From: Escherichia coli | GTDB taxonomy: Bacteria; Pseudomonadota; Gammaproteobacteria; Enterobacterales; Enterobacteriaceae | Strand: one strand, 5' to 3' | Assembly: GCF_003334765.1 (NCBI RefSeq) | Contig: NZ_QOWT01000069.1 | DNA length: 3,673 bases | In this document: in pieces, positions 3,101 to 3,234 of the stretch | Numbering within the stretch: position 1 is the stretch's first letter | How the letters are laid out: each line of letters opens with the position of its first letter | Program-made: the position numbers and the translations under genes | The notes under the pieces: generated by a model | Databases searched by the model: none | The model's input: only the letters and a program-made list of their open reading frames with translations | Told to the model about the DNA's origin: nothing

Positions 3101-3127
3101 TCAATACGGTTCTGACGAGCCGCTTAC
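3101..3127. repeat. IS66-type terminal inverted repeat (right end)
   Basis: TCAATACGGTTCTGACGAGCCGCTTAC lies immediately 3' of the tnpC stop; its complement starts GTAAGCG, as expected for the outer end of an IS66-family element. Confidence 0.6.
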
Positions 3128-3182
3128 GTCAGCGAACGGCTCCCCCTGCGCAATACACTGCCAACTGAATAACGCATTCCTG

Positions 3183-3209
3183 TCAATACAGCTCTCGCTG
3201 TACACTTAC
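3183..3209. repeat. Degenerate second copy of the IS66-type terminal repeat, same orientation
   Basis: TCAATACAGCTCTCGCTGTACACTTAC aligns without gaps to 3101..3127 at 18 of 27 positions, with identical termini (TCAATAC ... CTTAC; complement starts GTAAG). A third TCAATAC heptamer occurs at 3226..3232 and CAATAC at 3151..3156. Confidence 0.45.
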
Positions 3210-3234
3210 GCTTCTACCAGAGCCATCAATACAA

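Follow-up and report, generated by a model that had tools for sequence, protein, structure and literature searches.

The window, by which we mean the whole stretch of 3,673 nucleotides that was analysed, matches the chromosome of E. coli strain 746 (NZ_CP023353.1) at 100% identity and is located there in a large mosaic integrative island with tyrosine integrases, CbtA/CbeA modules, YagK/YfjJ genes and numerous IS fragments as cargo. From left to right, it contains the 3' end of agaR at its left edge, a UxaA-family pseudogene on the minus strand (254-1421, a pseudogene also in RefSeq), a YagK/YfjJ-like ORF (1571-2083), an ECs1377-family / DNA-binding pseudogene (2172-2492), two adjoining stubs that we assign to the IS66 family and refer to as element 1 and element 2, a short flank, and the 3' end of an accessory acnB gene on the minus strand (3335-3673, stop codon 3335-3337, following the RefSeq annotation of strain 746). 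The UxaA-family gene, which is altronate/galactarate dehydratase-like, carries a frameshift and an internal stop.

The acnB gene at the right edge is a second, accessory copy that immediately follows citCDEFXG in strain 746 (locus L001, 6336-12674), and the accessory citCDEFXG-acnB block belongs to the same mosaic island. Positions 3327-3673 are matched by all 5,426 E. coli genomes at 92-97%, via core acnB, and the flank at 3215-3326 is found in just 38 of the 5,426 complete E. coli genomes. Strong homology of the island gene to core acnB ends about 8 bp past the stop codon. Strain 746 also carries a third IS66-family fragment (L013, 3529-4774) about 9.4 kb upstream of the IS stubs, which consists of tnpB and the 5' part of tnpC and is cut by IS100. 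It was considered as the missing half of element 1 or element 2 and rejected, being of a different lineage (78% identical to the E. kobei element).

Element 1 is a remnant of the ISCro1 family. Over 619 bp, positions 2510-3127 share 94.8% identity with an intact copy of that family (L014), and after a short gap a further 23 nt (2487-2509) match the same copy. The homology halts exactly at 3127, where the intact copy ends in ...CGCTTAC and passes into unrelated flank. A total of 3,592 E. coli records were matched, and among the matches listed the IS66 copies end at 3125-3130, with three exceptions that extend 4-11 bp beyond or are located elsewhere. Because the homology and the IS66 matches end together, 3101-3127 (plus strand) is the right inverted repeat of element 1 and 3127 its tip. 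The tnpC gene of this element (2487..3097, plus strand), annotated as a tnpC pseudogene in RefSeq, is 5'-truncated and frameshifted and contains an internal stop, with its correct-frame stop codon at 3095-3097. The NCBIfam model NF033517 (IS66 family transposase) matches it at profile positions 227-377 of 387 (E=1.1e-50), with a score of 172.9 bits that stays below the 180-bit full-length cutoff, the protein being partial.

At about 2487, element 1 is truncated against the ECs1377-family / DNA-binding pseudogene. It retains TnpC homology and a family-type right repeat at its tip, and of a complete element it lacks the left repeat, tnpA, tnpB and the 8-bp duplication; a search for GTAAGCG in the 12.7 kb of L001 found none. 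The junction between the pseudogene and the truncated tnpC (~2487-2511) recurs in many other E. coli genomes, and therefore the left truncation seems to predate the present contexts. In those other genomes a second cut, at ~2632, links the IS fragment to a piece of melA.

Directly outside element 1, the sequence continues as the end of another IS66-family element. From 3128 onwards, an IS66-family element of E. coli EC36 has the same base in its right end at 68 of 83 ungapped positions. The first 45 bases of the stub (3128..3172, plus strand) correspond to the last 14 tnpC codons, VSERLPLRNTLPTE, and a TAA stop codon (3170-3172). The tail in EC36 is VSELLPWRIALPAE, with 9 of 14 residues identical and the stop codon in register, and that of K. 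pneumoniae pB431, read from aligned DNA and likewise ending in a stop, is VSELLPWRITLPTE, with 11 of 14 residues as in element 2; a stretch of 14 codons is too short for a profile search. The outer repeat at 3183..3209 (plus strand, ending ...CACTTAC) agrees at 24 of 27 positions with the ISKpn24-like repeat of L005, and at 18 of 27 with that of its ISCro1-type neighbour.

Searches for relatives of this stub covered 5,426 E. coli genomes, 72,556 plasmids and 100,044 species-representative genomes. The segment 3128-3209 was matched in 244 E. coli records and in 1,123-1,125 plasmid records, mostly from Klebsiella, at 80-85% identity, and the alignments start at 3128 in all but two of those listed. 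The annotations of the matched records name ISKpn24-, ISEc8- or ISSgsp1-family transposases or a generic IS66 transposase. Coverage of at least 80% of the segment was reached in 1,113 plasmid records, with a top identity of 85.4% (E=9e-18). On the strength of these alignments, 3128-3209 can be assigned to the final 82 bp of a different, ISKpn24/ISEc8-like lineage of the IS66 family. An exact 20-mer from its repeat had no match in the species-representative genomes, and a close intact copy sought in the E. coli genomes and plasmids was not found, the best being ~85% over 82 bp. As no closer copy occurs in the collections searched, the lineage of element 2 would appear to be mildly new.

The outer end of element 2 can be placed with the help of intact relatives. 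In L002, L005 and L007, the 8-bp target duplications (GTAAAACT, GAATTATC and GGTTTTTC, respectively) lie directly after ...CTTAC, which fixes the tip in such elements, and hence also 3209 as the tip of element 2. The 8 bp that follow (3210-3217, GCTTCTAC) are then its presumed target-site duplication, of which the left copy is gone; a junction of GCTTCTAC with GTAAGCG was not present in any of the loci examined. The sequence-only reading had left it ambiguous whether the true outer boundary was 3127 or 3209. Homology and the target duplications of relatives replace this ambiguity with two boundaries, 3127 for element 1 and 3209 for element 2.

A hallmark of the IS66 family is a terminal inverted repeat of ~20-30 bp that begins 5'-GTAAGCG. 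For this description, ISfinder, Han et al. 2001 and Gourbeyre et al. 2010 serve as references, the two papers being cited in PMC12898284. The reverse complement of 3183-3209 begins GTAAGTG, identical at 6 of 7 positions. Members of the family encode a DDE transposase, TnpC, preceded by the accessory genes tnpA and tnpB, and have an 8-bp target-site duplication on either side. In the window, tnpA and tnpB are absent upstream of the stub, since everything leftwards from 3127 is element 1, so the stub is the relic of an IS66 family member and not an element. RefSeq annotates no feature on these 82 bp. The proposal of a solo inverted-repeat relic came close, but understated a remnant that comprises 14 tnpC codons and a stop as well as the right repeat.

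The similarity between the two repeats is well beyond chance. The ungapped alignment of 3101-3127 (TCAATACGGTTCTGACGAGCCGCTTAC) with 3183-3209 (TCAATACAGCTCTCGCTGTACACTTAC) has 18 identities in 27 positions, as had been counted before; for 18 or more identities, the binomial tail is 6e-6. Among all 27-mers of the window on both strands, the one at 3183 is the top non-self match of 3101-3127, ahead of runners-up with 16 and 15 identities. The pair did not appear in the output of a generic repeat finder, its 67% identity being close to the limit of that program. The heptamer TCAATAC occurs only at 3101, 3183 and 3226 on either strand of the window; shuffles gave an expectation of 0.39, and three copies were reached in 0 of 200 shuffles. 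Outside the heptamer, the two repeats still agree at 11 of 20 positions. In an alignment of six right ends, drawn from four lineages, neither TCAATAC nor the terminal CTTAC varies, and TCAATAC can accordingly be described, in the sequences aligned, as the invariant inner edge of such right inverted repeats. Both pieces share TCAATAC...CTTAC because they are homologous right inverted repeats, and the statistical signal resides in these two copies at 3101 and 3183.

We therefore hold with high confidence that two dead IS66-family right ends are stacked in 3101-3232 and that native flank of the accessory acnB comes after them. Element 2 is the older of the two: its tnpC frame is broken by the complete tip of element 1, and therefore it came first, an order that can be read directly from the topology of the junction. 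An earlier IS66 insertion at the same spot, nested or sequential, was among the origins offered by the sequence-only reading, and in substance this holds. The outer end is, however, no footprint of the same IS, as it comes from a different lineage (82-85% identity) and is older.

The history of the site may have begun with the insertion of an ISKpn24/ISEc8-like element 2 at a point 125 bp past the stop codon of the island acnB and 25 bp beyond a terminator-like hairpin, with its right tip at 3209. An ISCro1-family element 1 in the same orientation would then have been joined by its intact right tip (3127) to the tnpC gene of element 2, 82 bp from the end of the latter, with insertion as the simplest route. 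Subsequent deletions would have taken the left parts of both, leaving 641 bp of element 1 and 82 bp of element 2. We infer simple insertion in preference to an adjacent deletion, and we likewise infer the number of deletion events.

The competing route is an intramolecular transposition, in which element 1, formerly located further left, made the 3127/3128 junction by an IS-mediated adjacent deletion into the tnpC gene of element 2. The intervening DNA would have been deleted without formation of a target duplication, and the right junction would look the same as after insertion. This route is possible, if rather unlikely. It would account for the loss of the left part of element 2 in every carrier and would suit an island side that has often been remodelled (IS256-like fragment, IS100, IS3-family element, CbtA junction); a nested IS66 element in L006 is, moreover, flanked by a 66-bp gap in its host IS and not by an 8-bp duplication. 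Yet the left junction is lost under both scenarios, so that they leave the same trace, and the 5' truncation of element 1 requires at least one further deletion in either case. With simple insertion, 8-bp duplications would be expected for both elements (GTCAGCGA for element 1, GCTTCTAC for element 2), and no left copy of either survives. Neither stub can transpose, because each lacks a left end and an intact tnpA, tnpB or tnpC, nor could a composite transposon arise from two right ends that point the same way. Nothing here implies that the stubs have a function today.

Two further heptamer-like sequences had been listed together with the repeats, CAATAC at 3151-3156 and TCAATAC at 3226..3232 (plus strand), and although their positions were given correctly, they do not continue a series of recurring motifs. 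The first lies within the tnpC tail of element 2, where relatives in the right-end alignment show CATAGC, CATCAC or GTAGTA; it is therefore not conserved and is not IS end sequence. The second lies in island flank and appears not to be IS-derived. It is kept in the variant that lacks the IS stubs (L003), and a search of E. coli genomes and plasmids gave no separate IS66 match in 3210-3345, where a few IS-end alignments merely overrun the tip. Read on the acnB strand, it is GUAUUGA and part of a tail, UUGUAUUGAU, that comes right after a hairpin.

This hairpin (3235-3265, minus strand) has a 14-bp stem that is 100% complementary and a 3-nt loop, and the acnB stop lies 70 nt ahead of it. Folding of 3205-3340 as minus strand gives a free energy of -45.2 kcal/mol (z = -4.3), and a classical terminator hairpin occupies the corresponding position behind core acnB. 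The hairpin is probably an intrinsic terminator of the island acnB gene. A rho-independent terminator is a stable stem-loop with G+C in its stem and a U tract behind it, downstream of a gene; here the UUGUAUUGAU tail is interrupted, and a consensus terminator scan did not call the hairpin. Promoter and terminator scans of 3000-3673 returned nothing, and an Rfam scan gave no credible match. The loop (3249-3251) is GAT in the window, L001 and four metagenome contigs, and ATC, its reverse complement, in L003, L004, L008, L009 and L018. The pattern suggests that the whole palindrome was inverted or that a template switch took place, and it explains most of the divergence (1.4-1.8%) that separates the two island variants.

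At 16 bp beyond the tip of element 2, the third TCAATAC is in a mildly improbable position, with ~0.013 copies expected in the 125-bp flank (an estimate scaled from shuffles). We attribute it to chance or to the terminator tail as candidate explanations. It could otherwise be meaningful, either as the relic of a third IS66 end or as a repeat-like attractant of the IS66 transposase, and IS66-family elements do cluster together. We nevertheless regard such a meaning as very unlikely. Beyond the heptamer, the 3226 copy agrees with one repeat at only 3 and with the other at only 2 of 20 positions, CTTAC is missing at the right distance, 3210-3345 has no BLAST similarity to IS66, and the tail behind the acnB hairpin offers an alternative reading. 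Moreover, 102 distinct flanks were taken from viral contigs, outside the right ends of ISCro1-type and ISKpn24-type elements, and only one of them has a TCAATAC in the 150 bp next to the tip (at +124), where ~2 would be expected by chance (an estimate). Self-targeting or repeat-targeting is known for some other IS families. If IS66-family transposases were similarly drawn to sequences like the inner box or to other IS66 copies, which we consider highly improbable, the outer TCAATAC and then element 2 would have made the site a repeated landing spot.

Of the 102 distinct flanks, 41 have a G directly next to the IS tip, compared with ~25 expected, and a G likewise follows the tip in the six ends of the right-end alignment, a mild target preference.

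If one IS end had been duplicated locally in tandem and the copies had then diverged, the repeats would be expected to have their direct orientation and short spacing, but such an origin is scarcely credible and can be excluded because the two copies differ in lineage affinity: the outer one is far closer to ISKpn24-like repeats (24/27) than to the adjacent ISCro1-type repeat (18/27), and its coding tail groups with the ISKpn24/ISEc8 lineage. The duplicated unit would also have to start exactly at an IS tip. Subterminal transposase-binding repeats of a single IS66 element with its true outer boundary at 3209, also suggested from the letters, would match the shared orientation, identical TCAATAC and CTTAC ends and 82-bp spacing, but are ruled out for practical purposes. 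Both the homology to ISCro1-family copies and the flanks of independent copies break off at 3127, and the bases that follow (3128-3172) encode the C-terminus of a second tnpC product up to a stop codon of its own. Intact relatives have a single TCAATAC in the right end, and GTATTGA is missing from their left end; of the 102 distinct flanks, 0 contain another repeat-like 27-mer in the 150 bp beyond the tip. TCAATAC was also absent from the distinct 150-bp stretches just inside the repeat.

The junction between the two stubs is old and stable. The 3127/3128 junction is 100% conserved in 36 of 36 E. coli carriers among the 5,426 complete genomes, and it is present in 5 of 5 metagenome contigs that carry the flank. 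A distant BLAST of the 5,426 E. coli genomes gave no IS-free acnB flank, only carriers or further-deleted variants. A pattern scan for the hairpin had no match in the 100,044 species-representative genomes, and in metagenome contigs it found five contigs, every one with the double stub.

Several island variants are eroded from the left. Element 1 is cut at ~3058 by an IS256-like transposase fragment in L008 and at ~3115 by IS100 in L009, element 2 is cut at ~3179 by an IS3-family element in L004, and a deletion in L003 joins a cbtA fragment at ~3215. The acnB side is intact throughout this series. IS turnover thus seems to be concentrated at this edge of the island. L008, an ST38-type island variant, also carries a solitary IS66-type repeat, GTAAGCGTCAACGGAGCACCGTATTGA, at 928-954, ~6 kb left of the junction; it is apparently alone, with no IS66 genes annotated beside it.

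Taken as a whole, the locus is ordinary mobile-element debris next to an accessory aconitase gene. Its value for annotation is that the boundaries of two IS relics are set and that an unannotated 82-bp stub is assigned to an IS66-family lineage. The double stub is a stable, diagnostic scar of one citCDEFXG-acnB island; it occurs in just 36 of 5,426 complete E. coli genomes and could therefore be used as a marker for tracing the island and the successive IS events that erode its edge.

Nested or abutting pairs of IS66-family elements are known from other sites and with other partners. IS66-family sequence lies within 400 bp outside the tip in 4 of the 102 flanks. On the E. kobei plasmid pIB2020_IncFIB (L006), a complete IS66-family element is nested within an ISKpn24-like tnpC gene, but at 407 bp from the end of the host IS and with the 66-bp gap. 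On an ETEC H10407-type chromosome (L142), an ISCro1-type right repeat is 1 bp away from the left repeat of another IS66-family element. In both cases the two elements have the same orientation, as in the window, and at least one partner is complete, unlike the two stubs of the window. The L142 segment at 3562-3576 is from the SEC470 chromosome, and the ETEC H10407 record gave an identical match; a single G separates the ISCro1-type right repeat from the complete second element, head-to-tail. On a CTX-M-55 plasmid (L143, 3562-3575), the same right repeat abuts GTAAGCAGAG..., possibly the relic of a left repeat. Alignments that overrun the tips to 3139-3142 or 3228-3232 were considered as real extensions and rejected as chance similarity or an adjacent IS66 left repeat; ranking by best coverage favours records of this kind.

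Among named elements, element 1 is closest to ISCro1, the PGAP name for the intact E. coli copies. Its right repeat is the same but for one base and its tip, where homology ends, is the same, whereas it keeps only the last 641 bp, without tnpA, tnpB and the left repeat and with the 5' part of tnpC gone, roughly 60% of the gene. Element 2 aligns end to end with the last 82 bp of the ISKpn24/ISEc8/ISSgsp1 group and has the same reading frame, position of the stop codon and ...CTTAC tip. It differs from this group in being at most 82-85% identical and in its terminal heptamer, GTAAGTG instead of GTAAGCG. By the usual ISfinder convention, we presume, element 2 would count as a separate IS, of which a mere stub is left.
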